From assembly GCA_965248835.1 (NCBI GenBank), contig CBDFLJ010000002.1, positions 1,344,001 through 1,408,000 of the forward strand: a DNA stretch of 64,000 bases, read 5' to 3'. A model generated the notes under the pieces. That model was not told the DNA's origin. It worked only from the letters and a program-made list of their open reading frames with translations, and did no database searches. Source of the stretch: Alphaproteobacteria bacterium. GTDB lineage: Bacteria; Pseudomonadota; Alphaproteobacteria; MPNO01. Positions 21,247 to 38,710 of the stretch are shown piece by piece (position 1 is the first letter of the stretch; every line of letters starts with the position of its first letter). Made by a program: the position numbers and the translations under genes.

Positions 21247-21341
21247 CGGCCCGGCCTCCCTTTGTCCGCACCCAGTCTACTCTCAACGGCGCCTCGCCTT
21301 AAACTGTCGGGCCGCGCCGCAATTCACGGAGGCCACGGAAC

Positions 21342-22013: not shown

Positions 22014-23473
22014 AGCAAGCTCCGCAAGACCGACGGGATCAGCCCCGGCAGGTCGTCCGCCACAAGCCCGGGACCAAAAGCAGCCGCGGCCTCGCCGTGG
22101 ATCCAGGCCGCGGCACATCCGGCATCGAACGGGCCGAGCCCCTGCGCCATCAGCCCCGTCGCGATCCCCGCCAGCACGTCGCCGGCACCGGCGGTGGCAA
22201 GGCTCGGCGGCGCATTGACGTTGACCGCCACCCGGCCGTCGGGGGCCGTGATGACCGTGTCGCTCCCCTTCAGGAGGACCGCCGAGCCCGAAACGGCGGC
22301 CGCCGAACGCGCCCTGGCGAGTTTGTCGCCGGAGGCCTCGAACAGGCGGGAGAACTCGCCCTCGTGCGGGGTCATCAGCACCGGCACGCCGGCGATGGCC
22401 GCGAACAGCGCCGCCGGGTCGCCGGCGAAGACGCTGAGCGCATCGGCATCCAGCACCAGGGGTTTTCCGGTGCCTGCGGCGCTCAGGACCGTTCGGCGGG
22501 TCGCCTCGCCCAACCCGGCGCCCGGCCCGATCAGCGCCGCATCCCGCCTGCGGTCGGCAAGATAGGCCGCGAGATCGCCCGGGGCCGCCGCCGGCACAAC
22601 CAGCAGGCTTGCCATGTCGGCCGCGTAGATCGGCACCGCCTCGGGCGGGCAGACCACGCTGGTCAATCCGGCCCCGATCCGCATAGCCGCGCGCGCGGCA
22701 AGCCGGGCCGCCCCGGTCATCGTCCCGCCGCCGGCGATCACCGCATGCCCGCGGCTGTATTTCTGATCGCCCGGCCGCGGCCAGCGCAGCGCGGAGCGCC
22801 ACAGCGCCGGGCCGTTCTCCCACGCCTTCGGCCGGATCTCATCGAGGACGTTCCCGGGAATGCCGATGTCGGCGCAATGGATCTCGCCCATGAGCGCGCG
22901 GCCGGGCATCAGCACGTGGCCGGGCTTCTTGCGGAAAAACGTTACCGTCATCATCGCTTCGGCAGCGGCACCGAGGATCGCCCCGCTATTGCCGTCGACG
23001 CCCGAGGGGACATCGACGGCGACGCAAGGGATGGCCGCACCGGCCAGCGCCTCGATCACCGCGCGTGCGGCGCCGTCGACCTCTCGCACCAGACCGGCAC
23101 CGAAGATCGCATCGACGGCAAGCCTCGCCCCGGCCAGCGCCGCGGGGCTGAGCGGGACGATCGGCCCGGTCCAGCGCCCGGCGTTGAGCGCGGCATCGCC
23201 CTTCAGCGCCGCCCGCTCGCCGAGCAGCGCCACGGTGACCGGCCAGCCGTGCTCGGCCAGCAGGCGGGCGATCACGAAACCGTCGCCGCCATTGTTGCCG
23301 GGCCCGCACAGAATCGCCGTCGGGCGCGGGTCCCAGCGGGCCCGGATGCGATCGGCGACCGCACGGCCGGCGGCCTCCATCAGCGCCTCGCCCGGAATGC
23401 CCGCCGCGATCGCCGCGCGATCGGCGGCATACATCTCATCGACGCTCAGCAACGCCAACTCGTCGCACATCAC
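21983..23473 (-). CDS. nnr: Bifunctional NAD(P)H-hydrate epimerase/dehydratase (YjeF/Nnr)
   Basis: LMEAAG, CGPGNNGGDG, DAIFGAG, VDVPSG, VLDADAL, TPHEGEF, LATAGAGDVLAG. Confidence 0.93.
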   Translation of the reverse strand: MMCDELALLSVDEMYAADRAAIAAGIPGEALMEAAGRAVADRIRARWDPRPTAILCGPGNNGGDGFVIARLLAEHGWPVTVALLGERAALKGDAALNAGRWTGPIVPLSPAALAGARLAVDAIFGAGLVREVDGAARAVIEALAGAAIPCVAVDVPSGVDGNSGAILGAAAEAMMTVTFFRKKPGHVLMPGRALMGEIHCADIGIPGNVLDEIRPKAWENGPALWRSALRWPRPGDQKYSRGHAVIAGGGTMTGAARLAARAAMRIGAGLTSVVCPPEAVPIYAADMASLLVVPAAAPGDLAAYLADRRRDAALIGPGAGLGEATRRTVLSAAGTGKPLVLDADALSVFAGDPAALFAAIAGVPVLMTPHEGEFSRLFEASGDKLARARSAAAVSGSAVLLKGSDTVITAPDGRVAVNVNAPPSLATAGAGDVLAGIATGLMAQGLGPFDAGCAAAWIHGEAAAAFGPGLVADDLPGLIPSVLRSLLYGTARSATQ

Positions 23474-23516
23474 GCCGATCTCCGGTGGCGGCCGCCGCGG
23501 TGGGGTTTCAACCCCT

Positions 23517-24212
23517 TCAGGCTGCGGAATTGCGCCGCTCGCGTGCCTCGAGCTCGGCGATCACCTCTTCGAGGCCCATCACGTCGGCGTATTTGTGGTG
23601 CAGGTCGAACAGGCTGATCTTGTGGATCAAATCGGCCCGGTCGTAGACGCATTCCTCGACCACGGTGGCGTGATAGCCGTTCGAATAGGCATCCACGGTC
23701 GAGGCGCGGACGCAGCCCGAGGTGCTCTCGCCGCAGATGATGAGGCTGTCGATCCCTCGCCGGGTGAGCTGGGCGACCAAGGGCGTGCCGTAGAACGCGC
23801 TGGCGCGCTCCTTCTCGATCACCAGGTCGCCGGGCTCCGGCGCGAAGGCCTCATGGATTGCATAGTCGTCGTCGCGGCCCTGGCCGATCTGCCGGTTGGT
23901 GGCGACGACGCTGCCATCCTTCTGCGCGGCGGTGGTGTAGACCACCGGCAAGCCCGCCATGCGGGCGGCCGCAAACAGCCGCCGGGTCGGCTCGATCGCC
24001 GTCCAGGCGTTGACCCCGCACGCGCTGGGATGGCGGTCGATCAGTTCGATCACCGGCTCGCTGCCGCCGCGATAGGCGAGGTTATAGAGGTCGATCGCCA
24101 GCAGCGCCGGGGACCGCCCGACATGGACGTCGCGCCGGTAGGCGGCATAGATCCTGAGCACGTCCTCGGGAATGACATCGCGCCAGCAATGGTCTTCGAA
24201 ATCACGCGCCAT
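23517..24212 (-). CDS. Isochorismatase-family cysteine amidohydrolase (maleamate / N-carbamoylsarcosine amidase-like)
   Basis: Asp-Lys-Cys triad motifs AIDLY, EKERASAFYGT, GESTSGCVRASTVDA; ATG at 24212. Confidence 0.85.
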   Translation of the reverse strand: MARDFEDHCWRDVIPEDVLRIYAAYRRDVHVGRSPALLAIDLYNLAYRGGSEPVIELIDRHPSACGVNAWTAIEPTRRLFAAARMAGLPVVYTTAAQKDGSVVATNRQIGQGRDDDYAIHEAFAPEPGDLVIEKERASAFYGTPLVAQLTRRGIDSLIICGESTSGCVRASTVDAYSNGYHATVVEECVYDRADLIHKISLFDLHHKYADVMGLEEVIAELEARERRNSAA

Positions 24213-24334
24213 CCTTCGGTCTCCCTCAACCGGAGTGCTGCCATGGGCCAGTTTCCCAGATCCGCCCGCGTTGGTCGAGCGCAGCCCTTGCGCGGCCGGC
24301 CGGTTTCGCGATAGGCCAGACCGGCAGGGAGGAG

Positions 24335-25510
24335 ATGATGACGACGGCAATCGAGAACATCGAGGTCATCCACGTCGCGCTGCCGACCCGGCGCGAGCAC
24401 AAGTGGGCCGGCCTGACCGAGCCGATCGGCGGCTATGTCCTGGTCAAGATGACCGGCGCAAACGGCGTGACGGGATGGGGCGAAGCGCCGGCGCTGAAGG
24501 ATTGGGGCGGCGACTTCGGCCGATATTTCGGCGAATCGCCGGCCACGACCCGGCTCGTCGTCGAGCGCTATCTGGCGCCGGTCGTGATCGGGCTCGACCC
24601 GGCCCAGCCGGTGGCCCTCCACCGGGCGATGGATGCGATGATCAAGGGCTACCCCTACGCCAAGGCGGCGGTCGAGATGGCGGCCTACGATCTGGCCGGG
24701 CGCACGCTGGGTGTGCCGGTCCATGTGCTGTTGGGCGGGCTGGTGCGCGCAACGGTCCCGATCACCCATTCGATCGGGCTGCTGGATATCGAGCAAGCGG
24801 TCCAGGAGTGCCGCAAGGTCACCGCCGAGGGTATCCGGACCATCAAGATCAAAGTCGGGATCGATCCCGAGCGCGACGTCGAGATCGTCCGCCGAGTCCG
24901 CGAGGCCGTCGGTCCGGCTACCGATTTGTGCGCGGATGCGAACCAGGGCTATCGGACCCCGCATGAAGCGATCCGCACCATCCGCGCGATGGAGCCGGAA
25001 AGGCTGATCTACGCCGAGCAGCCGGTCGAGGGGATCGACCGCATGGCCGAGGTCGCCCGCGGCGTCGGTGTGCCCCTGATGGCCGACGAGAGCGCCTGGA
25101 ACGCCCGCGACGTCTTCGAGATCGCCGAGCGGCGGGCTGCGGAGATCGTCTCGATCTATGCCACCAAGCCCGGCGGGCTCTACCGTGCGATGCAGGTCGC
25201 CGCCGTCGCCAAGGCGGCAGGGTTGATCTGCAACGTCAACGGCTCGGTCGAGACCGGGATCGGCAATCTCGCCAACATTCACCTCGCAGCCGCTGCCGAA
25301 CCGGTGAGCCTGAGCTGCGTTGTGCCGATCTCCACCCCGGCCGGGCACCGCACCGACCAGGTCGGCGGGATCTACTACACCGACGACCTGATCGCCGCCC
25401 CGTTCACGGTCAGGGATGGCGCGGTCGTCGTGCCGACCGGCCCCGGCATGGGTATCGACGTCGACCCGGAGAAGATTGAACGCTACCGGGTGCGCGAGGA
25501 GCGCCCATGA
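24335..25510 (+). CDS. Enolase-superfamily enzyme, muconate-lactonizing (MLE) subgroup
   Basis: GWGEA, AKAAVEMAAYDL.GR..GVPV..LLGG, KIKVG, DANQG, EQP, DES, PTGPGMG. Confidence 0.88.
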   Translation: MMTTAIENIEVIHVALPTRREHKWAGLTEPIGGYVLVKMTGANGVTGWGEAPALKDWGGDFGRYFGESPATTRLVVERYLAPVVIGLDPAQPVALHRAMDAMIKGYPYAKAAVEMAAYDLAGRTLGVPVHVLLGGLVRATVPITHSIGLLDIEQAVQECRKVTAEGIRTIKIKVGIDPERDVEIVRRVREAVGPATDLCADANQGYRTPHEAIRTIRAMEPERLIYAEQPVEGIDRMAEVARGVGVPLMADESAWNARDVFEIAERRAAEIVSIYATKPGGLYRAMQVAAVAKAAGLICNVNGSVETGIGNLANIHLAAAAEPVSLSCVVPISTPAGHRTDQVGGIYYTDDLIAAPFTVRDGAVVVPTGPGMGIDVDPEKIERYRVREERP

Positions 25511-25549
25511 CGCCGTGTGCGTTGCACCCGAATGACACGGGAAACTTGG

Positions 25550-26668
25550 ATGCGCGCGGAGATCGTTAGACGCCTGACGGAAGCGATGAGCCCGGCTGGG
25601 CTCGACGCGGTGATCGCCGTCTCGCCGGAGAACTTCGCCTACATCGCCGGGTTCGTCGTCCCCTCCCAGCCGTTGATGCGCTGGCGCCACGCGATGGCGA
25701 TCCTGACGGCAAGCGGCGCCGGATCGATTGTCTGCGTGGACATGGAAGAGACCACGGTCACCGGCCACGCGGACGGCGTGCCGGTCCGCGCCTGGGGCGA
25801 GTTCACCGACGATGCGATGGCGGTGCTGGCCGATGAGCTCCAGCGCCTGGGGCTCGGCACGGCGCGGATCGGGATCGAGCTCGACTATCTGCCGGCGCGC
25901 GACTTCGGCAAGCTCGATGCGGCCCTGCCCAACGCGCGGTTTGCCACGATCGATGCCATGCTGGATGAGATGCGCCAGCGCAAGACCGACGACGAGATCA
26001 CCCTGTTGCGCCGGCTGTCGCGAATCGCCGACAAGGCGATCGGCGATGCCTTCGCCGCGGTCTCTCCGGGCGATACCGAGATGGACATCGCCGCCGCGCT
26101 GACCCGCAGCGTCTACGCGCAGGGGGCGGAGCAGTTCCGCCTGATGATCGTCGCCACCGGCGAGCGCAGCCAGCTTCCCAATGTCGGGCCCACGGAGCGG
26201 GTGTTAGAGCCGGGCGATGTCTGCCGGGTCGAAATCTTCCCGATGATCGGCGGCTATCATGCCGGCGTCTGCCGCACCGCCGTGGTCGGCGCGCCGCCCG
26301 AGGGCGCCGAGCGGATCTGGCGAAATCTGGTCTCGTGCAAGCACATGCTGATGGAGATGATCTGCCCCGGTGCGGCCGCGCGGGCGATCTACGACGCCTT
26401 CCTAGGCCGCTTCGGCGAGCTCGGCCTGCCGCCGATCGCCTTCGTCGGCCACGGCATCGGCTTGCACCTGCACGAGGCGCCGTACCTCGCCGCGCACGAA
26501 ACCGCCAGCCTCGCGCCCGGCATGGTTCTGGGGGTCGAGCCCCTGGTCTACCGGACCGGCCTCGGATACGGCATGCAGCTCAAGGACATGATCGCAGTGA
26601 CCGAGGACGGCCCGGCCGACCTGCTGTCTGATGCGACGGACAACGACAGCCTGATCGTGGTCGAATAA
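25550..26668 (+). CDS. M24 (pita-bread fold) Xaa-Pro peptidase / creatinase-like hydrolase
   Basis: Creatinase N-domain (SPENFAY..G), RQRKTDDEI, GHGIGLHLHEAP, VEP; start uncertain (25517, 25532 or 25550). Confidence 0.85.
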   Translation: MRAEIVRRLTEAMSPAGLDAVIAVSPENFAYIAGFVVPSQPLMRWRHAMAILTASGAGSIVCVDMEETTVTGHADGVPVRAWGEFTDDAMAVLADELQRLGLGTARIGIELDYLPARDFGKLDAALPNARFATIDAMLDEMRQRKTDDEITLLRRLSRIADKAIGDAFAAVSPGDTEMDIAAALTRSVYAQGAEQFRLMIVATGERSQLPNVGPTERVLEPGDVCRVEIFPMIGGYHAGVCRTAVVGAPPEGAERIWRNLVSCKHMLMEMICPGAAARAIYDAFLGRFGELGLPPIAFVGHGIGLHLHEAPYLAAHETASLAPGMVLGVEPLVYRTGLGYGMQLKDMIAVTEDGPADLLSDATDNDSLIVVE

Positions 26669-26705
26669 GCTCGGGGACGCATTCAGCGGCGCGGCAGCGC
26701 ACTGA

Positions 26706-27692
26706 TCAGGTCGAGCGGACCAGATCGAGCGCTGCCCGCTCGCCGGCCGCATCGCCGACAACCAGCAGGACCGGCTCGTCGATTCCAGCCTCTTGATAGG
26801 CGGCGATGCGCTGCCGGCACGCCTCGGCCGGTCCGCACACGCCGAACGCCTCGACCGCGTCGTCGGGGATAAGCGATGCGGCCTGGTCCATGTCGCGGCG
26901 GGCGATCGCGGCCTTGACCGCGTCACGGTCGACGGAGATGCCCGATGCAGCCACGCTTTCGGCGACGAAATCGTTGCGCATCATGAAGGCGATCTTGGGC
27001 CTCAGCCGGTCGAGCGCGGCGCGGCGGTCCTCATCGACCGCGGTGTAGAGATAGCCCGCGCGGCGGATCCGCGCCGGGTCGCGGCCCGCGCGCACGGCCC
27101 CCTCGGCAACCCGGGCGAGCGAGAGCGCGGCATGTTCGACCGTCAGCCCGGCCGACAGCACCACCCCGTCGGCCCGCTCGCCGGTCAGGCGGAGCATCAT
27201 CGGTCCCATCGCCGCGACATAGATCGGGATCGGCTCGGCCGGACGGAAGGCCATCCGCATACCGGCCAGGCGAAAGACCTCGCCCTCGTAGGTCCCGCCC
27301 TCGCCGGACCAGAGCCGGCGCAGGCAGTCGATGAACTCGCCCATCGCGCGCAACGGATTTTCGAGCTTCGCTCCGGCTTCGGCGAGGAACATCGGGTTGC
27401 CCGAGCCCAGCGCGATCGCCGCCCGGCCCGGGGCGGCCTCGGCGATGGTCGCCATCGCCATCGCGACCGGGACGGGGTGCCAAAGATACGGGCTGATCGC
27501 CGTCGGGATGACCGTCGCGCGCTCGGTCGACAATGCGAAGGCGGTGCACGAGACCATAGACTGGCGGTAGCCCAGATGCTCGGCCATCCACAGGTTCCGC
27601 ACCCCGGCCGCCTCGGCGCGGCGGGCGAGCGCCAGCGCGTCCTGGAAGGTCGCGAACCCGTCGAAGCTCACCCCGAATGCCGGCGCGTTCAC
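26706..27692 (-). CDS. LLM-class oxidoreductase, Mer-like, probably F420-dependent
   Basis: ARRAEAAG...LWMAEH, ATIAEAAPGR..IALGSG, PIPIYVAAMGPMML.L.GE.ADGV. Confidence 0.8.
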   Translation of the reverse strand: MNAPAFGVSFDGFATFQDALALARRAEAAGVRNLWMAEHLGYRQSMVSCTAFALSTERATVIPTAISPYLWHPVPVAMAMATIAEAAPGRAAIALGSGNPMFLAEAGAKLENPLRAMGEFIDCLRRLWSGEGGTYEGEVFRLAGMRMAFRPAEPIPIYVAAMGPMMLRLTGERADGVVLSAGLTVEHAALSLARVAEGAVRAGRDPARIRRAGYLYTAVDEDRRAALDRLRPKIAFMMRNDFVAESVAASGISVDRDAVKAAIARRDMDQAASLIPDDAVEAFGVCGPAEACRQRIAAYQEAGIDEPVLLVVGDAAGERAALDLVRST

Positions 27693-28798
27693 CGCCCCTC
27701 CCCCTCGGTCACCAGGCGGTGCAGCGCGGCCGACTCCAGGCCGGCGATGCCCATGCGTTCCAGGCTTAGCCCGGTTGCGGCGTAGTCAATGCCGGTCGCC
27801 GCCGATAGCAGAGCGATGTGAGCATCGATCGTCGGTGTCGGAACGCCGGCCAGCCTGCCGAATGCCGCGATCGGCACCAGGCCGTAGCCGACATCCTCAT
27901 GGACATAGCGATGGTCGAGCGAGGACGGGCTGCGCAGCGTCGCGTTGGGTGCGCTTTCGCGACACGCGCGGGCGACCGAACCGCTGTCGGCGGCCTCTCT
28001 CGTCGTCAACCCGGCGTTGAAGAAAATCTCAAGGAACGGCTTCGCAGGCACGCCAAGCGCTTGGGCGACCGCCATGCGTTCGGCGTCGATCGCGCCGACC
28101 ACGCGGCCGACCGCCTCGGTCATCCCTTCCTTGTAGAACAGGAAATCACCGTCGGTGTCCTCGATCCAGCCGGCATTCATCAGCATGCCCGGCGGGTGAA
28201 AGATCGCGTTGATGTTGGCAAGTCCGGTCTCGAGCACGCTGGAGGCTGCCCGGATTTCCGGGAACAGCGGCTGCACCTCGGCGTGCAGCCGGGCGGTGGC
28301 GCTGCCCGGCAGGGCCGCGAACATGAGCCGCTTGGTGTAGGAATAGATCCCCACCGTCGCCGGTCCTTCCATCCGGGCGATATAGGTCAACGTGACCGTC
28401 TCGCAGGTCTCGAGCGGCGCGGTGTGACCTGCGCGGCGGAGTTCCGTGCGGAAATGGAGGCCGCCCCCGGTATGGCCCGGATCGAGGAAGACCGGCACGC
28501 CCGGCGCCAGCACGCCCGCCAGGGCTTCGGCGTAGTAGGCATGCGCCACCGCGGGGACGACCAGCATCACCAGGTCGGCGCCATCGACAGCCGCCGCGAC
28601 ATCGGTGGTCAGCAACGCCGGCATCCCGGTGCCCTCGAAGATGCCGCGCGCGGTGATCCCGCCGTGCGCGCGGATCGGGGCCAGGCGCTCCTCGCTCCTG
28701 GCATGCAGCCGGACCTCGAAGCCGCGGCGGGTCAGGTCCGCCGCCGCGGCATGGCCCCCATGACCCGCCCCCAGTACCGCGACCGATGTGATAGCCAT
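27689..28798 (-). CDS. NAD/NADP opine (octopine/nopaline) dehydrogenase family protein
   Basis: VAVLGAGHGGHA.AADL, PGHTGG, ETGL.N.NAIFHP, FLFY.EG, HRYVHEDVGYGLVP, GVPTP. Confidence 0.88.
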   Translation of the reverse strand: MAITSVAVLGAGHGGHAAAADLTRRGFEVRLHARSEERLAPIRAHGGITARGIFEGTGMPALLTTDVAAAVDGADLVMLVVPAVAHAYYAEALAGVLAPGVPVFLDPGHTGGGLHFRTELRRAGHTAPLETCETVTLTYIARMEGPATVGIYSYTKRLMFAALPGSATARLHAEVQPLFPEIRAASSVLETGLANINAIFHPPGMLMNAGWIEDTDGDFLFYKEGMTEAVGRVVGAIDAERMAVAQALGVPAKPFLEIFFNAGLTTREAADSGSVARACRESAPNATLRSPSSLDHRYVHEDVGYGLVPIAAFGRLAGVPTPTIDAHIALLSAATGIDYAATGLSLERMGIAGLESAALHRLVTEGEGR

Positions 28799-28927
28799 CG
28801 CCTCCCCCGCCTGGCTGCGGATTTCGCGCGGCGATCTTGATCGGACCGGCCCGAACGGGCAAGACGTGACACCGGTGCCCGTTTGCGGCTATGTCCTGGG
28901 CAGGAACGCGAGGAGGCGATAAGGACG

Positions 28928-31282
28928 ATGAGGCGCGGACTGCCAGAGAGAGCGCGCTTGCGCACGCGGTTGCTCGAGACCTCGGTGGAGGCGTTGTGCG
29001 CCGAGGCTGCGGAAATCCGCGATGCCGGTCACGGCGAGGTCATCACCTGGTCACGCAAGGTGTTCATCCCGCTGACCCGGCTGTGCCGCGATGTCTGCCA
29101 CTACTGCACCTTTGCCGCCCCGCCGAAGAAAGGGGTCGACGCCTATCTGAGCGCGGAAGAGGTTCTGGCGATCGCACGCGCCGGTGCTGCGGCCGGCTGC
29201 AAGGAGGCGCTGTTCACGCTGGGCGACAAGCCCGAGCTGCGCTATCGCGCCGCGCGCGAGGCGCTGGCGGAGCTCGGCTTCGCCACCACCATCGATTATC
29301 TCGTCCATGCCGCGCGCCTGGTCTTCGAAGAAACCGGACTGCTGCCGCACGCCAACCCGGGCGTCCTCGGCGCCGGGGACGTGGCTGCCTTGCGCCCGGT
29401 CTCGGTCTCGCAGGGGTTGATGCTGGAGAGTCTCTCGCCCCGGCTCGCCGCGCGCGGGATGGCCCATCACGGCTCGCCCGACAAACGTCCCGCAGCGCGG
29501 CTTGCGACCCTCCGCCACGCCGGTGCGCAGTCTGTCCCATTCACCACCGGGATTCTCATCGGCATCGGCGAGACCCGCGGCGAACGGCTGGACGACCTGT
29601 TCACCATCGCCGACCTGCACGCGCGCTACGGTCACGTCCAGGAAGTGATCGTCCAGAACTTCCGCGCCAAGCCCGGCACCAGGATGGAAGCGGCGCCGGA
29701 GCCGGACATCGACGACCTCGCCTGGACGATCGCCGCGGCCCGGATCGTGCTGGGTCCGACCATGAACATCCAGGCCCCGCCCAACCTCAGCGCCGAAAGC
29801 TGGCCCGACCTGATCGATGCCGGGCTCAACGACTGGGGCGGGATCTCTCCGGTGACGCCCGACCACGTCAACCCGGAGGCGCCGTGGCCGCAGATTCCGG
29901 CACTGGCCACGGGCACCGCCGCCAAGGGAAAGGTCCTGGTAGAGCGGCTCGCGGTCTATCCCGAATATGCCCGCGAGCCCGGACGCTGGCTCGATGCCGC
30001 CCTGGCACCGGCGGTGCTGCGGATGAGCGATGCCGAAGGAAGGGCGCGCGAGGACGCGTGGGCGCCGGGCATGCCGGACGCGCTTCCGGTCCTGCCGGCG
30101 GCGGCGCTCAGGACATCGCCCGGGATCGCGCGCATCCTGGACCGCGCTGGCGACGGCGCCCGGCTCGAGGTCGGTGAGATCGCTGCGTTGTTCGGCGTGC
30201 GCGAAGGCGGCTTCACCGCGGTCTGCGAGGCCGCCGACGACCTGCGGCGAAGCGCCGTCGGCGATCGCGTCACCTACGTGGTCAACCGCAACATCAACTA
30301 CACCAATATCTGTTCCTACGCCTGCCGCTTCTGCGCCTTCTCCAAGGGCCGCGCGAGCGCCGGGCTGCGCGGGACGCCTTACGACCTGGGTCTGGACGAG
30401 ATCAGCCGGCGAGTGGCCGAGGCCTGGGACCGCGGCGCGACCGAGGTGTGCCTGCAAGGCGGCATCCATCCCGACTACACGGGCGAGACCTATCTCGCGA
30501 TCACCCGCGCCGTGAAGGAGGCCGCACCCGACATCCATGTCCATGCTTTCTCGCCCCTGGAGATCAGTCAGGGTGCGGCAAGCCTCGGGCTCGGCGTCGC
30601 TGACTTTCTCGAACGCCTGATCGAGGCCGGGCTCGGCTCGCTGCCGGGCACGGCGGCGGAGATCCTCGATCCACCGATCCGTAAGATCCTCTGTCCCGAC
30701 AAGGTCACGACCGCGCAATGGCTGTCGGTCATCGGGACGGCGCATCGTCTTGGTCTGCGCACCACCGCAACGATCATGTTCGGCAGCGTCGAGGGTCCGG
30801 AGTCCTGGGCCCGGCATCTCAACCACGTCCGCGACTTGCAGGCGGAGACCGGCGGCTTCACCGAGTTCGTCCCGCTGCCCTTCGTCCACATGGAGGCGCC
30901 GATCTACCTGCGCGGTCAGGCGCGCAAGGGGCCGACCTGGCGCGAAGCCGTGTTGATGCACGCCGTTGCCCGGCTCGCGCTCAACCCGCTGATCGACAAC
31001 ATCCAGACCTCCTGGGTCAAGATGGGGCGCAACGGCGCTGCGGCGTGCCTCGATGCCGGGGTCAACGACCTGGGCGGCACGCTGATGAACGAAAGCATTT
31101 CGCGCGCGGCCGGCACCACCCACGGCCAGGAGCTGCCGCCGGCGGAGATCGAAGCCCTCGCCCGCTCCGCCGGCCGGCACGCCGCTCAGCGCTCGACGCT
31201 CTACGGCCCGGTCGATGAACGGCGGACGGCCGCCTCGTACCAGGCAGGGCCGCTTGCGCCCATAATGACCGCGGCACAATGA
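28928..31282 (+). CDS. fbiC: FO synthase, bifunctional CofG-CofH fusion
   Basis: Two radical-SAM motifs CRDVCHYC and CSYACRFC; KVFIPLT, NRNINYTN, NDLGGTLMNESI. Confidence 0.95.
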   Translation: MRRGLPERARLRTRLLETSVEALCAEAAEIRDAGHGEVITWSRKVFIPLTRLCRDVCHYCTFAAPPKKGVDAYLSAEEVLAIARAGAAAGCKEALFTLGDKPELRYRAAREALAELGFATTIDYLVHAARLVFEETGLLPHANPGVLGAGDVAALRPVSVSQGLMLESLSPRLAARGMAHHGSPDKRPAARLATLRHAGAQSVPFTTGILIGIGETRGERLDDLFTIADLHARYGHVQEVIVQNFRAKPGTRMEAAPEPDIDDLAWTIAAARIVLGPTMNIQAPPNLSAESWPDLIDAGLNDWGGISPVTPDHVNPEAPWPQIPALATGTAAKGKVLVERLAVYPEYAREPGRWLDAALAPAVLRMSDAEGRAREDAWAPGMPDALPVLPAAALRTSPGIARILDRAGDGARLEVGEIAALFGVREGGFTAVCEAADDLRRSAVGDRVTYVVNRNINYTNICSYACRFCAFSKGRASAGLRGTPYDLGLDEISRRVAEAWDRGATEVCLQGGIHPDYTGETYLAITRAVKEAAPDIHVHAFSPLEISQGAASLGLGVADFLERLIEAGLGSLPGTAAEILDPPIRKILCPDKVTTAQWLSVIGTAHRLGLRTTATIMFGSVEGPESWARHLNHVRDLQAETGGFTEFVPLPFVHMEAPIYLRGQARKGPTWREAVLMHAVARLALNPLIDNIQTSWVKMGRNGAAACLDAGVNDLGGTLMNESISRAAGTTHGQELPPAEIEALARSAGRHAAQRSTLYGPVDERRTAASYQAGPLAPIMTAAQ

Positions 31283-31953
31283 ACGGGCCGCTGCCGGTCA
31301 TCGCGATCGTCGGCGGCACCGGTGCCGAGGGCACGGGCCTGGCGGTGCGCTGGGCGCGCGCCGGCTATCGGGTGGTGATCGGCTCGCGTTCGGCCGACCG
31401 TGCCGCCGAGACCGCCGCCGGGCTCGCCAGACACGGCAGTGTCGAGGGCGCGGCCAACGCCGATGCGGCGGCGGCGGCGGACATTGTCGTGGTCACCGTC
31501 CCCTACGCCGCACAGCGGCCGACCCTGGAGGACATCAAGCACGCGCTGGCCGGCAAGATCGTCGTCGATGTGACCGTCCCGCTGGTGCCGCCGCGCGTCG
31601 CGCGGGTGCAGCTCCCCGAGGAGGGATCGGCCGCGCTGATCGCCCGGTCGATCCTGGGCAAGGATGTCCGCCTGGTCTCCGCCTTCCAGAACGTCGCCGC
31701 CGACCACCTGGCCGATCCGAGCCACGAGACCGATTGCGACGTTTTGGTGTGCGGCGACGACAGGGAAGCGCGCGCCGAGGTGGTGCGGTTGATCGAGGCC
31801 ACGGGGCTGCGCGGGCTGGAGGCCGGCCCGCTGGACAACGCCGTCGCCGCCGAGGCGCTGACCTCGGTGCTGATCTGGATGAACCGGCGCTACAAGTCGC
31901 CGGGTGCGGGTATCCGGATCACCGGGCTGCCCGGTGAGGACGCGGCCGATTGA
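31279..31953 (+). CDS. npdG: F420H2:NADP+ oxidoreductase (Fno/NpdG)
   Basis: IAIVGGTGAEG.GLA.RWA, IGSR, VSAFQNV, E.LT.VLI..N..YK....GIRITG. Confidence 0.92.
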   Translation: MNGPLPVIAIVGGTGAEGTGLAVRWARAGYRVVIGSRSADRAAETAAGLARHGSVEGAANADAAAAADIVVVTVPYAAQRPTLEDIKHALAGKIVVDVTVPLVPPRVARVQLPEEGSAALIARSILGKDVRLVSAFQNVAADHLADPSHETDCDVLVCGDDREARAEVVRLIEATGLRGLEAGPLDNAVAAEALTSVLIWMNRRYKSPGAGIRITGLPGEDAAD

Positions 31954-32714
31954 CCCGCGGCTCGCCGCGGCTCGTGATCTCCGCGCCGTCCGGTATCGGC
32001 CGGATCGCCGAGGGCGCGGATTTGTGCACGGTCGTCCTGGATGCGCTGGCGCGCGAGGATGAAGCTCTCGCAGTCGGCGACATCGTGGTGCTGGCCCAGA
32101 AGATCGTCTCCAAGGCCGAAGGCCGCCTGGTCGATCTGGCCGCGGTAAGGCCGTCCGCCCCCGCGCGCGCGCTGGCGGCCGAAACCGCGAAAGACCCGCG
32201 TGTGGTCGAGCTGATCCTGCGCGAGTCCGAGCAGGTCGTCCGGTCCCGTCCGGGGTTGATCATCGTCCGTCACCGGCTGGGCTACGTCCTCGCCAATGCG
32301 GGGATCGATGCATCGAACGTCGGCGAAGGCCGGGTCCTGTTGCTGCCCGAAGACCCCGACCGGAGTTGCGCGGCTATCAGGGCGGAGCTTGAACGCCGTA
32401 CCGGGGTTGCGCCGGGCGTGATCATCAACGACAGCCTGGGCCGTGCCTGGCGGCTCGGGACGACAGGCACCGCGCTTGGCGCCGCGGGGCTTGCCGCGCT
32501 CAAGGACATGCGCGGCAGCCTGGACCTCTTCGGCCGGCCGTTGCAGGTCAGCGAGATCGGCCTTGCCGACGAGGTCGCCGCGGCGGCTTCGATCGTCATG
32601 GGCCAGGCCGCGGAGGCGCGGCCGGTCGTCCTGGTCCGCGGCCTGCCCTACCCGCCCGAAGACGGGCGCGGCGCGGACCTGATCCGGCCGGCCGCGCTCG
32701 ACCTGTTCGGCTGA
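31950..32714 (+). CDS. cofE: Coenzyme F420-0:L-glutamate ligase (stand-alone, no nitroreductase domain)
   Basis: QKIVSKAEGR, ANAGIDASN, LLPEDPD.S, DS.GRAWR.G, ADE.AAAA. Confidence 0.93.
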   Translation: MTRGSPRLVISAPSGIGRIAEGADLCTVVLDALAREDEALAVGDIVVLAQKIVSKAEGRLVDLAAVRPSAPARALAAETAKDPRVVELILRESEQVVRSRPGLIIVRHRLGYVLANAGIDASNVGEGRVLLLPEDPDRSCAAIRAELERRTGVAPGVIINDSLGRAWRLGTTGTALGAAGLAALKDMRGSLDLFGRPLQVSEIGLADEVAAAASIVMGQAAEARPVVLVRGLPYPPEDGRGADLIRPAALDLFG

Positions 32715-32715
32715 C

Positions 32716-33681
32716 ATGGAAGACGCGCCGCGATATCTGGCGCTCGCCGGCGGGGTCGGCGGCGCCAAGCTCGCCGAAGGGCTGACGCAGATCCTGCCGG
32801 CCGACAGCCTGGTGGTCGCGGTCAACACGGCCGATGACTTCGAGCATCTGGGCCTCCACATTTCGCCCGATCTGGATACGGTGATGTACACGCTCGCCGG
32901 GCGCAACAACGCCGAGACCGGCTGGGGGCTCGCCGGCGAGACCTGGTCGTTCATGGAAGCGCTCGGCGATCTGGGAGGCGAGACCTGGTTCAGTCTAGGC
33001 GACCGGGACCTTGCAACCCACCTGGTCCGTACGCATGCGCTTCGATCCGGCCGATCGCTGTCCGACATCACGACCTCGTTGAGCCGGGCGATGGGCATCG
33101 ATCATACGATCGTACCGATGAGCGACGAAGCGGTGCGCACGATCGTCCAGACCGCCGATGGCGCGCTGCCCTTCCAGGACTATTTCGTCCGCCTCGCCTG
33201 CGCGCCCGTCGTGACGGGCTTTGCTTTCGAGGGGATCGCCGACGCCAGCCCTTCACCCGGCCTCGTCGCCGCCCTGGCCGAGCCCGGTCTTGGTGCGGTC
33301 CTGATCGGGCCGTCGAACCCCTATGTCAGCATTGCGCCGATCCTCGCCATCCCGGCGGTGGCGGCATTCCTCGACCGGCGGGCGGTGCCGGTGATCGCGG
33401 TCTCGCCGATCGTCGGCGGTGCGGCGATCAAAGGCCCGGCGGCGAAGATGATGGCGGAACTCGGCGCCGAGATAAGCGCGAGCGGGATCGCGCGGCATTA
33501 CGGCGACCGCCTGGACGGGATCGTCATCGACCGGACCGATGCCGCCCTCGCCGCAGAATTGCGCGCCGCCGGGCTCGCCGTCGCCGTCGCGCCGACGGTA
33601 GTTACAAGCCCGCAGGATCGCCGTGCGCTCGCCCGCGTGGTGGTCGATTTCGCCGCCGATGTCGCACCGAGGCCGCGATGA
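32716..33681 (+). CDS. cofD: 2-phospho-L-lactate / phosphoenolpyruvate transferase (CofD/FbiA)
   Basis: LAGGVGGAKL, NTADD, ISPDLDTVMYTLAG, WF.LGDRDLATH, PSNPYVSI, KGPA. Confidence 0.95.
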   Translation: MEDAPRYLALAGGVGGAKLAEGLTQILPADSLVVAVNTADDFEHLGLHISPDLDTVMYTLAGRNNAETGWGLAGETWSFMEALGDLGGETWFSLGDRDLATHLVRTHALRSGRSLSDITTSLSRAMGIDHTIVPMSDEAVRTIVQTADGALPFQDYFVRLACAPVVTGFAFEGIADASPSPGLVAALAEPGLGAVLIGPSNPYVSIAPILAIPAVAAFLDRRAVPVIAVSPIVGGAAIKGPAAKMMAELGAEISASGIARHYGDRLDGIVIDRTDAALAAELRAAGLAVAVAPTVVTSPQDRRALARVVVDFAADVAPRPR

Positions 33682-34304
33682 GGCTCGCCGCTGTCGTTCC
33701 CGTGCGCTCGCTCGCCGGGGGCAAAGCGCGGCTCGCCGGCGTGCTCGACGACGGGATGCGGGCAAGGCTCAACGCGGCGCTGATGACCCACACACTGGCC
33801 CTGACCGCCTCCCTTCCGGGCTGCGCGAGGACGTTCGTCGTCAGCCCGGACTCCGAAGCCGGCGCCCGCGCCGCGGCGCTGGGCGGCACCCTGGTCGATG
33901 ACCCCGGCCAGGGCCTGAACGCCGCGGTCGCCGCCGGCCTTGCAGCCGCACGCGATCATGGCATCGAACGGGCGCTCATCCTGCCGATCGATCTGCCCCA
34001 GGCGCGGCCCGAGGATATCGCTGCCCTGGCGGCCTGTGCCGCACCTGTGGTCATCGTTCCGGACCGCTATGGCGCGGGCACCAACGCGCTATGCCTTTCG
34101 ACCGGGCTCGCGTTTGCGCCCCGCTTCGGCGCGGACAGCTTTCGCGCGCATATCGCCGAGGGCCGCCGCCTGGGCGCAACCATCGCGATCAGACGCAACC
34201 CGCTTCTGGCTCTCGATATCGACACCGAATCCGATTGGCGGGATTGGGGCCGCGCGGACGACCGCACCGCCTGGATCGACCAGCGTGTCCGAAACGCGTC
34301 CTAA
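33678..34304 (+). CDS. cofC: 2-phospho-L-lactate / PEP guanylyltransferase (CofC/FbiD)
   Basis: VVPVR....K.RL, GLNAA, DLP, GTNAL, FGADSF..H, LDIDT..D. Confidence 0.9.
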   Translation: MRLAAVVPVRSLAGGKARLAGVLDDGMRARLNAALMTHTLALTASLPGCARTFVVSPDSEAGARAAALGGTLVDDPGQGLNAAVAAGLAAARDHGIERALILPIDLPQARPEDIAALAACAAPVVIVPDRYGAGTNALCLSTGLAFAPRFGADSFRAHIAEGRRLGATIAIRRNPLLALDIDTESDWRDWGRADDRTAWIDQRVRNAS

Positions 34305-34325
34305 AGGAGCCGCGCACCGGGAAGC

Positions 34326-34354
34326 TTGCGGTGTGGCTCGATCGCTGGCTACAT
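34326..34354 (+). promoter_or_regulatory. Putative sigma70 promoter of the aap operon
   Basis: TTGCGG-N17-CTACAT about 60 bp upstream of aapJ. Confidence 0.45.
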
Positions 34355-34415
34355 AGTGCCTCGGCCGGTGCCCGCGAGGTGCCGGATTGGTCCCAATCAA
34401 ACTGGGAGAAACAGC

Positions 34416-35444
34416 ATGAAACTCACAGCCCTTGTGGGCGTCGCGGCAATCGCCGGAACCATGGCGATGGCCGGTGCCGTGCCCGGTCAGGCGGCGACCC
34501 TCGACGACGTACGTGCTGCCGGTGAATTGAAGTGCGGAATCAATACCGGTATCGCGGGCTTCGCCTACACCGACGACCAAGGCAAATGGAGCGGATTCGA
34601 CGTTGCCTACTGCCGGGCGCTCGCCGCCGCGGTGCTGGGCGATTCGAGCAAGATCAAGTTCGTCAACCTGACCGGCAAGAATCGGTTTCCGGCCCTCCAG
34701 TCGGGCGAGATCGACGTGCTGTCGCGCAACACGACCTGGACCTTCTCGCGCGATGTCGACCTCGGATTCACATTCATCGGGGTCAACTACTACGACGGTC
34801 AGGGTTTCATCGGACGCAAGTCGTTGGGCGTGATGAGCGCGAAGGAGCTGAACGGAGCCTCGATCTGCATCCAGACCGGCACCACCACCGAGCTCAACCT
34901 TGCGGACTTCGCCCGCACCAACAACATCAAGTACGAGCCGGTGCCGATCGAGACGAACGCGGAGGCGCGCGCCGCCTATCAGGCCGAGCGTTGCGACGTC
35001 TACACGACGGACGCATCCGGCCTCGCGGCCACGAAGGCGACCTTCGAGGACGCCGACAAGCACATGGTGTATCCCGAAATCATCTCCAAGGAGCCGCTGG
35101 GTCCGCTGGTACGCCAGGGCGACGACCAGTGGGCGGACATCGCGCGCTGGGTGCTCAACGCGCTCATCATCGCCGAGGAGAACGGCGTGACCCAGGGCAA
35201 CGTGGCGGCCATGGCCAAAGGGACGGCCAACCCTGAAATCAACCGCATGCTCGGGGCGGAGGGCAGCTTCGGCCAGAAGCTCGGGCTCGACGGCCAGTGG
35301 GCGGTTCAGGCGATCGCGGCCGAGGGCAACTATGCCGAGATCTTCAACCGCTACATCGGTCCGGACACCAAGCTTGGCCTCGGACGGGGTCTGAACGCGC
35401 TTTACAAGGATGGCGGCATCCTCTACGCGCCGCCGTTCAGATAA
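34416..35444 (+). CDS. aapJ: General L-amino acid ABC transporter substrate-binding protein (AapJ/BztA)
   Basis: Signal peptide, RF.ALQSGEIDVLSRNTTWT, YYDGQGF, GTTTE, ISKEPLGP, GGILYAPPFR. Confidence 0.93.
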   Translation: MKLTALVGVAAIAGTMAMAGAVPGQAATLDDVRAAGELKCGINTGIAGFAYTDDQGKWSGFDVAYCRALAAAVLGDSSKIKFVNLTGKNRFPALQSGEIDVLSRNTTWTFSRDVDLGFTFIGVNYYDGQGFIGRKSLGVMSAKELNGASICIQTGTTTELNLADFARTNNIKYEPVPIETNAEARAAYQAERCDVYTTDASGLAATKATFEDADKHMVYPEIISKEPLGPLVRQGDDQWADIARWVLNALIIAEENGVTQGNVAAMAKGTANPEINRMLGAEGSFGQKLGLDGQWAVQAIAAEGNYAEIFNRYIGPDTKLGLGRGLNALYKDGGILYAPPFR

Positions 35445-35460
35445 GCCGAACCGGGCTCGA

Positions 35461-35512
35461 ACCCGCCCGACGGCGACTGCCGCCGGGCGGGTCGGGCAGC
35501 CGCTCGGCTGCC
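35461..35512 (+). promoter_or_regulatory. Two GC-rich stem-loops between aapJ and aapQ (likely mRNA-stabilising or attenuating)
   Basis: ACCCGCCCG...CGGGCGGGT (35461-35492) and GGCAGCCG-CT-CGGCTGCC (35495-35512); no U tail. Confidence 0.5.
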
Positions 35513-35571
35513 TCTCGATCGAAACGATCGACATGGTCGGTAACCCAATGTCCGGCAGATAGCGGGCGCCG

Positions 35572-36726
35572 ATGCGCGTGAGCCGCCTGTGGACGGACGA
35601 GAGGGCGCGCGGGGTCGTCTTCCAGCTCCTGCTGATCCTCGGCCTGACGCTCGTTGTCGCCTTCATCGCGGTGAACACGATCGCGAACCTGCAGCGCGCC
35701 GGTCTCGCTTCGGGCTACGGCTTCCTGTTCGATACCGCCGCGTTCGACATCAACCAGCGGCTGATCCAGTACGACTCGACGTCGACCTACGGGCGGGCGT
35801 TCATCGTCGGCGGCCTCAACACGATCGTCGTCGCGGCGCTCGGAATCGTCGCGGCCACGATCATCGGCTTCGTCGCCGGCGTGCTGCGGCTGTCGAACAA
35901 CTTCCTCATCAGCCGGACCGTCGCCGTGTACGTGGAGTTCACGCGCAACGTCCCCGTGCTGCTCCAGATCATCTTCTGGTGGGTCATCATGCTGGCGTTG
36001 CCGCGGGTTCGCGACAGCATCTCGCTCGGCGATACGTTCTTTCTCAACAACCGCGGCATCCGGATGCCTTCGCCGGTATTCGAGGACGGCTCGTCATTCC
36101 TTCTGCTGGCGCTCGCGGTCGGCCTGGCCGCGACCTTCGTCGTCTCGCGCTGGGCCAGGGCCCGCCAGGACGCGACCGGCCAAGGGTTCCCGGTCGGGTG
36201 GGCCGGGCTCGCCCTCATCACCGGCCTGCCGCTCGTGGCCTACCTCATTCTCGGCCGGCCGATCGGATTCGACGCCCCGACCATGGGCAAGTTCAACCTG
36301 CAAGGCGGGTTCAACATTACCCCGGAGCTGGGGGCCCTCTGGCTCGCCCTGTCGACCTATACCGGAGCGTTCATATCGGAGATCGTTCGCTCCGGCATTC
36401 TTTCGGTGAACAAGGGACAGACGGAAGCGGCCGGGGCGCTCGGCCTTCGTCCCGGGCTTACGATGCGCAGGATCATCCTGCCGCAAGCGTTGCGGGTGAT
36501 CATCCCGCCTCTCACCAGCCAGTACCTCAATCTCACCAAGAACTCCTCGCTGGCAGTCGCCATCGGATACCAGGATCTCGTCTCGATCGGCGACACCATC
36601 CTGAACCAGAGCGGACAGGCGCTGGAGGTGATCTCGATCTACATGATCGTCTACCTCTCTCTCAGTTTGCTCACGTCTGGTTTCATGAACTGGTACAACG
36701 CGCGCATCGCGCTGGTGGAACGATGA
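35572..36726 (+). CDS. aapQ: Amino acid ABC transporter permease (AapQ/BztB)
   Basis: YVEFTRNVPVLLQI, EIVRSGI..V.KGQTEAA, PPLTSQYLNLTKNSSLA, MNWYNAR. Confidence 0.93.
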   Translation: MRVSRLWTDERARGVVFQLLLILGLTLVVAFIAVNTIANLQRAGLASGYGFLFDTAAFDINQRLIQYDSTSTYGRAFIVGGLNTIVVAALGIVAATIIGFVAGVLRLSNNFLISRTVAVYVEFTRNVPVLLQIIFWWVIMLALPRVRDSISLGDTFFLNNRGIRMPSPVFEDGSSFLLLALAVGLAATFVVSRWARARQDATGQGFPVGWAGLALITGLPLVAYLILGRPIGFDAPTMGKFNLQGGFNITPELGALWLALSTYTGAFISEIVRSGILSVNKGQTEAAGALGLRPGLTMRRIILPQALRVIIPPLTSQYLNLTKNSSLAVAIGYQDLVSIGDTILNQSGQALEVISIYMIVYLSLSLLTSGFMNWYNARIALVER

Positions 36727-37838
36727 GCGGCGAGCGTCCATTCCACCGCAGCCAGGCCGAGATGATGCCCCAACGCCAGCCACCGGCGGCGACCATCGGG
36801 GTGATCGGCTGGGTCCGCGCAAACCTGTTCTCGAGCTACCTCAACATCGCGTTAACCCTGATGTCGGCCGGGCTGCTCTGGGTTGCCGTGCCGCCGTTCC
36901 TCGACTGGGCGCTCTTCGGGGCCGACTTCAGCGGCGCCACCGGGGAAGACTGCACCGGCCGCGGCGCTTGCTGGGCGTGGCTCGACCAGCGTATCGAGCA
37001 GTTCCTCTACGGCTTCTATCCAGCGGAGTCCTACTGGCGGGTCAATCTCGCCGTCGCCCTGCTGGCGCCGGCGCTCGCCTACGTCCTGTTCGAGAATATG
37101 CCCTATGCCCGTTACGGGCGCTGGTTCTCGGTCGCCTATCCGGTGATCGCGGCCATCCTGCTGGTCGGCGGCTTCGGTCTCGAAGGCGTTACCACCGACA
37201 AGTTCGGCGGCTTCATGCTGAACCTCGTCGCCGGACTCGCGGGCATCGTCCTGTCGCTGCCGATCGGTATCCTGCTGGCCCTCGGCCGGCGCTCGCACCT
37301 GCCGATAGTGCGTGTCCTGTCGGTCGTGTTCATCGAGATGATCCGCGGGGTCCCGCTGATCACGCTGCTCTTCGTCGCCATCGTCATCCTGCAGTTGTTC
37401 CTGCCTCCGCAGGTGTCGCTCGACCAGCTCATCCGGGTCATGATCATGATCACCCTGTTCGCTTCGTCCTATATGGCGGAGGTCATCCGGGGTGGTCTGC
37501 AAGCGATACCCCAGGGCCAGCACGAGGCGGCGCAGGCGATGGGGCTGGGCTACTGGAAGATGATGCGCCTCATCGTCCTGCCCCAGGCGCTCAAGATCTC
37601 GATCCCCGGAATCGTCAACACGTTCATCGGTCTGTTCAAGGATACGACGCTCGTCATCATCATCGGTCTCTTTGATATTCTCGGCCAGGCGCGCCTGCTG
37701 CAGACCAATCCGGAATGGATCGGCGAAGTGGATCACGAGACATTCCTGCTGGCGGCGCTGTTCTTCTTCGTGATTTGCTTCTCCATGTCGCGCTATTCGA
37801 TCAATCTCGAGAAGCGTCTGGACCCGACACGACGATAG
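36723..37838 (+). CDS. aapM: Amino acid ABC transporter permease (AapM/BztC)
   Basis: ATG at 36723 overlapping the aapQ stop; [40 protein letters not shown]. Confidence 0.93.
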
Positions 37839-37851
37839 AGGAGGAAGCGCG

Positions 37852-38646
37852 ATGTCAGCCGCCGGGACGAATGTCGAGACGCCGCCGACGGGTACGAGCG
37901 ATGCGGGCATCGATCCGATCATCCGGATTGACGGCCTCAACAAGTGGTTCGGACCCTTCCACGTTCTGCGTGACATCAACCTGGAGGTGGCGCCCCAGGA
38001 ACGGATCGTCATCTGCGGGCCGTCGGGTTCCGGCAAGTCGACGCTCATTCGCTGCATCAACCGGCTGGAAGGGCACCAGGAGGGATCGATTACCGTAGAC
38101 GGCACCAAGCTTACGCACGATCTCAAGAACATCGACGCGATTCGGCGCGAGGTCGGCATGGTGTTTCAGCAGTTCAACCTGTTTCCGCACCTGACGGTGC
38201 TGGAGAACTGCGCGTTGGCCCCGATCTGGGTGCGAAAGATGCCGCGCGAGGAGGCGGAGGGAATCGCCATGGAGTACCTCGAACGGGTCAGGATCCCCGA
38301 TCAGGCGCGGAAGTATCCCGGCCAGTTGTCCGGCGGCCAACAGCAACGGGTGGCGATCGCGCGGTCGCTTTGCATGCGGCCCAAGATCATGCTGTTCGAC
38401 GAGCCGACCTCGGCGCTCGATCCCGAGATGATCAAGGAAGTGCTGGAGGTAATGGTCGATCTGGCCGACTCCGGCATGACCATGCTGGTCGTCACCCACG
38501 AGATGGGCTTCGCCTCGCAGGTCGCGAATCGAGTGATCTTCATGGACGAAGGTCAGATCGTCGAGCAGAACACGCCCGATGAATTCTTCAACAACCCGCG
38601 GTCCGATCGGACGAAGCTGTTCCTGAGCCAGATCCTCCACCATTGA
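37852..38646 (+). CDS. aapP: Amino acid ABC transporter ATP-binding protein (AapP/BztD)
   Basis: [37 protein letters not shown]. Confidence 0.95.
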
Positions 38647-38710
38647 GCCCGGCACGACCTCCACGCCGTAAGCTGACCGAGGCGTCCCCGCATCACCAGA
38701 AGAGGCAACG

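Follow-up and report, generated by a model that had tools for sequence, protein, structure and literature searches.

A described precedent for a locus that joins an F420 reductase to its clients is the npd picrate/dinitrophenol cluster of Rhodococcus and Nocardioides, an actinobacterial system in which the Fno-type reductase NpdG and F420-class luciferase-like oxidoreductases (LLM), working as hydride transferases, act on nitroaromatics. We know of no opine dehydrogenase (ODH), M24 or MLE partners in that cluster, and to our knowledge no cofactor biosynthesis operon lies next to it. Precedent for LLM chemistry at C=N bonds comes from the LmbY/Apd6-type imine reductases of 4-alkyl-L-proline biosynthesis, which are encoded in actinobacterial antibiotic gene clusters and reduce the C=N of cyclic imino acids with F420H2, a type of reaction that we also propose for the LLM studied here, the two being set side by side by description only. 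A third system, ectoine and hydroxyectoine catabolism, employs a non-peptidase M24 ring hydrolase (DoeA/EutD) together with EutA, EutB and the ornithine cyclodeaminase (OCD)-type EutC on a cyclic amidino acid. Here we analyze a 64,000-nt stretch of an alphaproteobacterial genome (GCA_965248835.1, contig CBDFLJ010000002.1, positions 1,344,001-1,408,000, forward strand), referred to as the window, whose coordinates are used throughout. Within it, an ODH-LLM operon stands head-to-head with a complete F420 biosynthesis operon, and we think it probable that this locus combines F420 supply and Fno reduction with an adjacent F420-dependent client pathway whose substrate is an N-substituted or cyclic amino-acid carboxylate.

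The excerpted text of a 2021 review describes proteobacterial F420 operons as a fused FbiC with CofC, CofD, CofE and Fno, and predicted alphaproteobacterial F420 producers as encoding Fgd as well as Fno (PMC8498797). According to the same excerpts, work on F420-dependent enzymes had at that time not gone beyond Actinobacteria and the question of why Proteobacteria make F420 was left unanswered; no ODH-linked F420 client is named in them (PMC8498797). Our literature search found no publication joining opine dehydrogenases to F420 and none that connects the ODH and LLM families, and searches on F420 with Defluviicoccus, Rhodoplanes or Pseudolabrys returned nothing relevant among the matches listed. 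The window carries the same fused FbiC-CofC-CofD-CofE-Fno set as the operons excerpted from the review, and its genome differs from the alphaproteobacterial producers described there in that no Fgd-family protein scored over cut-off among its 44 LLM-family matches. Since no Fgd reached its cut-off and a search of the same genome returned a single copy of Fno over cut-off, NADPH via Fno would be the only recognised route to F420H2 in this organism, whose assembly is 100% complete by markers and rated 9.51% contaminated. The genes of the locus were mapped from an open reading frame (ORF) listing and profile searches (Pfam, NCBIfam) of the window proteins:

21983-23473, minus strand: Nnr (ORF/profile map)
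23517-24350, minus strand: isochorismatase-family protein (ORF/profile map)
24335-25510, plus strand: MLE-subgroup enolase-superfamily enzyme (PF13378, 174 bits; PF02746, 64.8 bits), convergent with the ODH-LLM operon
25517-26668, plus strand: atypical M24 hydrolase of Creatinase_N plus Peptidase_M24 fold (PF00557, 129.9 bits; PF01321, 58 bits)
26706-27692, minus strand: LLM, a Mer-like luciferase-like oxidoreductase with a TIM-barrel domain (PF00296, 205.7 bits), by similarity a member of the F420 class and encoded after ODH in the ODH-LLM operon
27689-28798, minus strand: ODH, an opine-dehydrogenase-family, CENDH-like protein (PF02317 Octopine_DH, 153 bits), first gene of the operon
28799-28927, no strand: divergent intergenic region of 129 bp between the ODH and FbiC starts (sequence reading)
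28928-31282, plus strand: FbiC (fused CofG/CofH), FO synthase (NF006687, 1132.7 bits, cut-off 1018)
31279-31953, plus strand: Fno/NpdG, NADPH-dependent F420 reductase (TIGR01915, 208.8 bits, cut-off 149.8)
31950-32714, plus strand: CofE, F420-0:L-glutamate ligase (TIGR01916, 256.5 bits, cut-off 180.65)
32716-33681, plus strand: CofD, 2-phospho-L-lactate transferase (TIGR01819, 297.3 bits, cut-off 257.45)
33678-34304, plus strand: CofC, guanylyltransferase of F420 biosynthesis (TIGR03552, 143.7 bits, cut-off 105)
from 34417, plus strand: aapJQMP, with the likely AapJ start at the ATG at 34417

Every gene that the first-pass annotation had named in this region is present where that annotation placed it. 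All five cof/fno genes score above their NCBIfam equivalog cut-offs, so that the FbiC, CofC, CofD and CofE set is complete, and CofE is a stand-alone protein of 254 aa in which PF01996 was the sole domain found, without the nitroreductase domain of FbiB. The 4-bp overlap reported for ODH and LLM is borne out, as the GTG start of LLM and the TGA stop of ODH share the bases GTGA. The divergent gap, given earlier as about 130 bp, measures 129 bp when FbiC starts at the ATG at 28928, the likeliest start given a GAGGAGG ribosome-binding site ten bases before it, and shrinks to 84 bp with the longest FbiC ORF (TTG at 28883).

A one-genome-per-species scan gave 79 loci whose ODH relatives are 51-88% identical; these loci were searched by tblastn with the window proteins, and the neighborhood of ODH, LLM and cof genes proved to be conserved in other genomes. 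LLM lies within 10 kb of ODH in 63 of the 79 loci and within 4 kb in 59, and in 21 loci the LLM match starts at most 50 bp beyond that of ODH; these LLM counts are lower bounds, since tblastn overlooked the LLM of Pseudonocardia, which only Pfam revealed. The module is also larger than the ODH-LLM pair, for it includes the atypical M24 protein and the MLE-type enzyme encoded just beyond LLM: an M24 relative occurs within 10 kb of ODH in 61/79 loci, an MLE relative in 47/79, and LLM, M24 and MLE are all near ODH in 40/79. At least two cof genes are found within 10 kb of ODH in 28/79 loci, and FbiC is divergent from and upstream of ODH in 28/79, with 135-370 bp between the aligned FbiC and ODH ends in a marine clade. 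When the count is limited to the 49 loci that extend 9 kb or more in both directions, LLM is present in 43, M24 in 40, MLE in 32 and cof genes in 22. The recurrence of divergent FbiC and of LLM within 4 kb shows that the arrangement is more than chance.

On a FastTree phylogeny of the 79 ODH sequences, cof adjacency appears in three to four clades, including 11 of 17 members of the marine clade, 11 of 15 in the Defluviicoccus-type clade to which the window belongs (the four exceptions sit on truncated contigs) and 4 of 6 in a Pseudolabrys clade, as well as in the single rows L028, L035 and L072. Well-supported branches force at least eight changes of state for this trait. Other lineages have the four enzyme types contiguous and co-directional. 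A Pseudolabrys locus (L036) has the cof operon and a GntR gene divergent from M24-ODH-M24'-MLE'-LLM-ABC transporter-ODH2, where M24' is a second M24 paralogue of the module, and locus L069 reads HyuA/B, GntR and then MLE-M24-ODH-M24'-MLE'-ODH2-LLM-TctC, with TctA downstream. In Binatia (L075), two OCD genes are followed by M24-MLE-ODH-LLM-M20-M20, and in Pseudonocardia (L074) the order is MFS, GntR, MLE, ODH, LLM, M24 and a molybdenum hydroxylase. Accessory genes across the loci comprise TctC (17 loci), TctA (12), an ABC ATPase cluster (20), GntR-FCD regulators (9), molybdenum hydroxylase (13), SDR (14), AMP-ligase (12) and flanking OCD (5).

The phylogenetic distribution of the module also follows that of F420 genes. 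Setting aside 26 ODH genomes counted as cof-adjacent, we searched 50 others for CofD (TIGR01819); in two of them (L044 and L059) two or more cof genes in fact lie within 10 kb. CofD scored over cut-off in 43 of the 50, was present as fragments in 2 more and was not found in 5. Far from occurring mostly in genomes that lack cof genes, the module is thus accompanied by F420 genes in 72 of 77 carriers (the 45 matched, the 26 unsearched cof-adjacent genomes and L004, which has FbiC only), compared with CofD in 58 of 401 evenly sampled Alphaproteobacteria (55 over cut-off), a comparison given without a p-value and in which related genomes are not independent. Within that sample, ODH orthologues of at least 58% identity occur in 3/401 genomes, all CofD-positive, and distant ODH-family matches of 31-37% identity in 20 further genomes, 9 of them CofD-positive. 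Close LLM relatives likewise occur in 3/401 genomes, all CofD-positive, when five candidates per genome are scored. Carriers span seven phyla and include Binatia, Chloroflexota, Nitrospinota, Methylomirabilota and Actinomycetota, and those outside Pseudomonadota are all CofD-positive except for a metagenome-assembled genome (MAG) represented by a 2.7-kb contig binned as Chloroflexota. Linkage to cof genes in several ODH clades, the 72/77 carriers set against the 58/401 baseline and the F420-class scores of LLM described below all support the earlier proposal that the ODH-LLM pair is functionally tied to F420.

The ODH protein has the two-domain layout of N-(1-D-carboxyethyl)-L-norvaline dehydrogenase (CENDH) from Arthrobacter sp. 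1C (PDB 1bg6), to which it aligns over its full length (E 1.9e-58). Its N-terminal Rossmann domain has a GAGHGG dinucleotide motif (residues 10-15) that aligns with the CENDH motif, and the C-terminal Octopine_DH helical domain covers residues 185-334, well above the PF02317 cut-off of 30. G10, G12, G14, G15, R34, H201 and P202 are invariant among 34 aligned ODH sequences, and His201 of the His201-Pro202 pair aligns with CENDH histidine 202, which we take to be catalytic, so the enzyme looks catalytically intact. CENDH uses NAD, whereas the window ODH is probably NADP(H)-linked, because the acidic residue found after beta-strand 2 in CENDH is replaced by Ala-Arg-Ser and Arg34 is invariant. The window enzyme further differs from CENDH in being translationally coupled to an F420-class LLM and nearly confined to genomes with F420 genes. 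A search for longer ODH proteins that might be fusions returned only P0121 (761 aa), in which Creatinase_N and half an M24 domain precede ODH; this is probably a merged or frameshifted gene call and was not used as evidence.

Scoring of LLM against F420- and flavin mononucleotide (FMN)-class families, which the first-pass annotation had proposed, placed the protein closest to F420-class families and structures, although it reached no family cut-off. The best 14 NCBIfam matches are all F420-class, headed by methylene-tetrahydromethanopterin reductase (Mer; NF002619, 171.9 bits), while the best FMN-class family scores 60.9 bits. Among PDB matches, the nine best are all entries named as F420-dependent, as are 10 of the first 11, with Mer 1z69 at the top (E 1.5e-40, 289 residues aligned). 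From these similarities we infer that LLM uses F420. In the excerpted text of Mascotti et al. 2018 (PMC6279831), we found no sequence marker that separates F420-dependent from FMN-dependent LLMs.

Best PDB matches of the M24 protein are prolidases (E 9e-32). We read its ligand positions from an alignment to Pyrococcus furiosus prolidase (1pv9), whose five metal ligands are presumably D, D, H, E and E in the numbering used. The corresponding positions are E239, G250, H312, E341 and K356, which is not the canonical DDHEE set, and the unusual pattern is kept in 44/44 orthologues (EGHEK in 41, EAHEK in 3). The M24' paralogue has ENHEE in 15 sequences, and eight neighboring ordinary M24 proteins have the canonical DDHEE. 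For the MLE-type enzyme, the best NCBIfam match is muconate/chloromuconate cycloisomerase (TIGR02534) at 245.1 bits, under its 334.95 cut-off so that the subfamily level is not reached, and the best PDB match is 3i4k (E 3.4e-49); no characterized subfamily in NCBIfam or PDB was matched at cut-off. Across 52 aligned sequences the enzyme keeps its KxK motif, D/E/D ligands and second Lys, and with both catalytic lysines present it looks catalytically intact. Protein Atlas searches with M24 and MLE returned generic family names only. The module resembles ectoine catabolism in grouping an M24-fold enzyme with racemase/dehydratase-type and imine-reductase-type partners, and the flanking OCD genes noted above add to the likeness. 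It differs in that the module M24 proteins score only 79.8-83.2 bits against ectoine hydrolase models, far under the DoeA cut-offs of 575 and 613, and in having ODH and an F420-class LLM in the place of EutC; no DoeB, DoeC or DoeD set was seen with the module.

These features suggest a scheme in which FbiC, CofC, CofD and CofE would supply F420 and Fno would reduce it with NADPH to F420H2. The client would consist of four enzymes: the CENDH-like ODH, the translationally coupled Mer-like LLM, the atypical E-G-H-E-K M24 hydrolase and the MLE-type enzyme. What follows, from the class of substrate to the sequence of reactions and their direction, is our proposal. A transported nitrogen-containing carboxylate, either N-alkylated or a cyclic imino or amidino amino acid, would enter the pathway; the M24-like enzyme may hydrolyze a C-N bond; and the MLE-type enzyme may abstract an alpha proton, leading to epimerization, beta-elimination or dehydration. 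A pair of hydride transfers would then act on C=N or C=C bonds: ODH would perform the NAD(P)-linked one and LLM the F420-linked one, while Fno would restore F420H2 with NADPH. By analogy, the substrate may be an opine, a cyclic imino acid formed by a dehydratase of MLE type, or a cyclic amidine resembling ectoine or creatine whose ring M24 opens. The simple opine cleavage or synthesis scheme of the first-pass annotation is therefore incomplete, as M24 and MLE recur with ODH, and the opines it named (strombine, alanopine and tauropine) are unsupported. Our judgement is evenly divided on a fuller proposal: that ODH, LLM, M24 and MLE form a previously undescribed F420-dependent pathway in which ODH and the Mer-like LLM act in tandem on the C-N bonds of an amino-acid carboxylate that is either cyclic or N-alkylated. 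Such a pathway would give F420 its first defined physiological role in Alphaproteobacteria and would be common to Binatia, Nitrospinota, Chloroflexota and Pseudonocardia.

Several observations weigh against an F420-dependent client pathway at this locus. LLM falls under every NCBIfam cut-off (171.9 bits at best, versus 276), so no curated F420 family claims it. CofD, CofH and CofE were all not found in five ODH-carrying MAGs whose completeness is not known; three of these are 5.5-7.6 Mb in size, two of the three have an LLM 55-56% identical to that of the window beside ODH, and one cof-less carrier is the 2.7-kb contig binned as Chloroflexota, with an ODH 79% identical. Of the 58 CofD-positive sampled Alphaproteobacteria, 55 have no ODH orthologue, which means that the module cannot explain in general why members of the class have F420. 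In the window, M24 and MLE run towards ODH-LLM and are not co-transcribed with them, and neighboring accessory genes vary by lineage. F420 also has other clients in the window genome, which contains about 44 LLM-family matches, one of which (5658-6602) passes the curated F420 family TIGR03619 with 206.2 bits (cut-off 166.9).

The identity of LLM allows two other explanations. If it were a genuine Mer (EC 1.5.98.2) of a C1 pathway with ODH unrelated, then its top family and top structure match would be expected, and some relatives are indeed named Mer by JGI. Likeness to Mer may extend to F420-linked hydride transfer at a C-N centre. The score of 171.9 bits is far under the NF002619 equivalog cut-off of 276, however, as is that against TIGR03555 (156.1 versus 348.7), and methenyl-tetrahydromethanopterin cyclohydrolase (PF02289, Mch) was not found in the marker-complete window genome, although the same search detected it in 3 archaeal controls. 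Because of these low scores and a genome without the cyclohydrolase, we judge from sequence that LLM is no true Mer. It is partnered by ODH, M24 and MLE rather than by C1 enzymes, and the 21 loci with LLM and ODH matches no more than 50 bp apart speak against an unrelated ODH, leaving this explanation an extremely slim chance. An FMN-dependent monooxygenase or reductase, with the cof neighborhood as inherited synteny free of cofactor dependence, would agree with the missed F420 family cut-offs, with the NCBI naming of relatives only as 'LLM class flavin-dependent oxidoreductase' and with the five cof-less MAGs. Against this, the FMN-class score is 60.9 bits versus 171.9 for Mer, the top 14 families are F420 class and the best 9 structures are named F420-dependent, F420 genes accompany the module across seven phyla at a frequency well above the baseline, and no flavin reductase gene recurs in the module. 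On family scores and phylogenetic profile, FMN dependence is unlikely, and we would be surprised to find it.

Other explanations keep F420 as the cofactor and change the role of the module. The same enzymes could work in the biosynthetic direction, with ODH reductively condensing an amine and a 2-oxo acid and LLM performing a second, F420H2-dependent reduction to give an opine-type product such as a compatible solute, metallophore part or signal. Opine dehydrogenase equilibria favor reductive condensation, F420H2 is a low-potential reductant and the best-known F420 LLM imine reductases (LmbY/Apd6) are biosynthetic; moreover, the Ala-Arg-Ser replacement and invariant Arg34 suggest NADPH use by ODH, and Fno couples F420 to NADPH. 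The module is accompanied, however, by uptake-type binding proteins (TctC, ABC systems), GntR-FCD regulators and hydrolases (M24, M20, hydantoinase/oxoprolinase), a combination seen in catabolic operons. Genes for a synthetase, an exporter or a nicotianamine-synthase-like protein do not recur with the module, and biosynthesis is doubtful in our view. ODH and LLM might alternatively serve F420 biosynthesis or tailoring, through dehydro-F420-0 reduction or supply of a lactyl or glyceryl precursor, as the head-to-head position with the cof operon in 28/79 loci, the stand-alone CofE that lacks the FbiB nitroreductase domain and an LLM that presumably binds an F420-like molecule could suggest. Yet only 3 of the 58 CofD-positive sampled genomes have an ODH orthologue, and the module also sits beside FbiB-type CofE-nitroreductase fusions in Pseudolabrys-type relatives (a fusion in L036, long CofE forms in L053 and L059) and occurs in Pseudonocardia. 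In 45 genomes the cof genes are elsewhere, and M24, MLE, transporters and regulators go along with the module. That the pair serves F420 biosynthesis is unlikely because of the CofD-positive genomes without ODH and the coexistence with FbiB-type fusions, and we assign it little probability. We thus continue to favor the reading of the locus as F420 supply joined to a dedicated client pathway.

The first-pass annotation had also linked the aapJQMP genes to the module, stating that they follow directly. They do come next, but 112 bp separate the CofC stop (34304) from the likely AapJ start, an ATG at 34417 preceded by a GGGAGA site and followed by a signal-peptide-like N-terminus. Only 3 of 80 regions have AapJ near ODH, and the two besides the window place it differently, so this adjacency is not conserved and is not evidence of function. 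Downstream of the aap genes, 39695-42588 (minus strand) encodes an oxygenase of Rieske/VanA type and a protein of 598 aa whose C-terminal part is an SDR domain, and a polysaccharide-deacetylase-like ORF lies at 38711-39622.

Within the ODH/FbiC gap, an 8-bp inverted repeat with a 14-nt spacer is found at 28854-28883, and short sequence stretches of the gap also occur in the corresponding region of locus L066. No consensus sigma-70 promoter and no intrinsic terminator was found within 26500-29100, and no Rfam match within 21000-39000 (E up to 0.1). Members of the marine clade have a promoter-like hexamer pair upstream of ODH in common. In the closest relatives (L002-L007, L011, L013, L056, L067), a gene for a 567-aa AMP-binding protein resembling acyl-CoA synthetases separates FbiC from ODH, unlike the window, which has only the 129-bp gap at this position.

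GC content is 0.68-0.72 over 22001-34000, the block from Nnr to CofC (0.70-0.72 in five of six 2-kb windows), and 0.62-0.70 in the rest of the window, which hinted at a recent horizontally acquired island. We rejected this because the order Nnr-isochorismatase-MLE-M24-LLM-ODH-cof is common to Defluviicoccus-type relatives, at 75-83% protein identity.

Two further regions of the same genome contain LLM genes in related settings. A second candidate F420 client cluster (1964-9888, minus strand) surrounds the LLM at 5658-6602, which is encoded beside a 1209-aa fused hydantoinase/oxoprolinase A+B, two CoA-transferase subunits and a pyridoxal phosphate (PLP) enzyme. A second ODH/LLM neighborhood (L080; G000:C2:975001-994000), about 385 kb from the window, encodes molybdenum-hydroxylase subunits, an LLM 52% identical to that of the window, a glyoxalase-family protein and an ODH paralogue (44%), together with a DAO-type flavoprotein, an SDR and an ornithine cyclodeaminase/mu-crystallin protein.

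The ODH-LLM-M24-MLE locus is a concrete and testable candidate for F420 use in Proteobacteria, as its module is nearly exclusive to genomes with F420 genes and stands head-to-head with the cof operon in several lineages. Genetics and enzymology are feasible, since cultured carriers exist: Rhodoplanes elegans DSM 11907, R. roseus DSM 5909, R. azumiensis KCTC 15603 and Pseudonocardia bannensis DSM 45300. If the favored reading is true, the module would provide a new reaction context for opine-dehydrogenase-family enzymes and a new family of Mer-like deazaflavin enzymes, which may be of value in imine/enamine biocatalysis.

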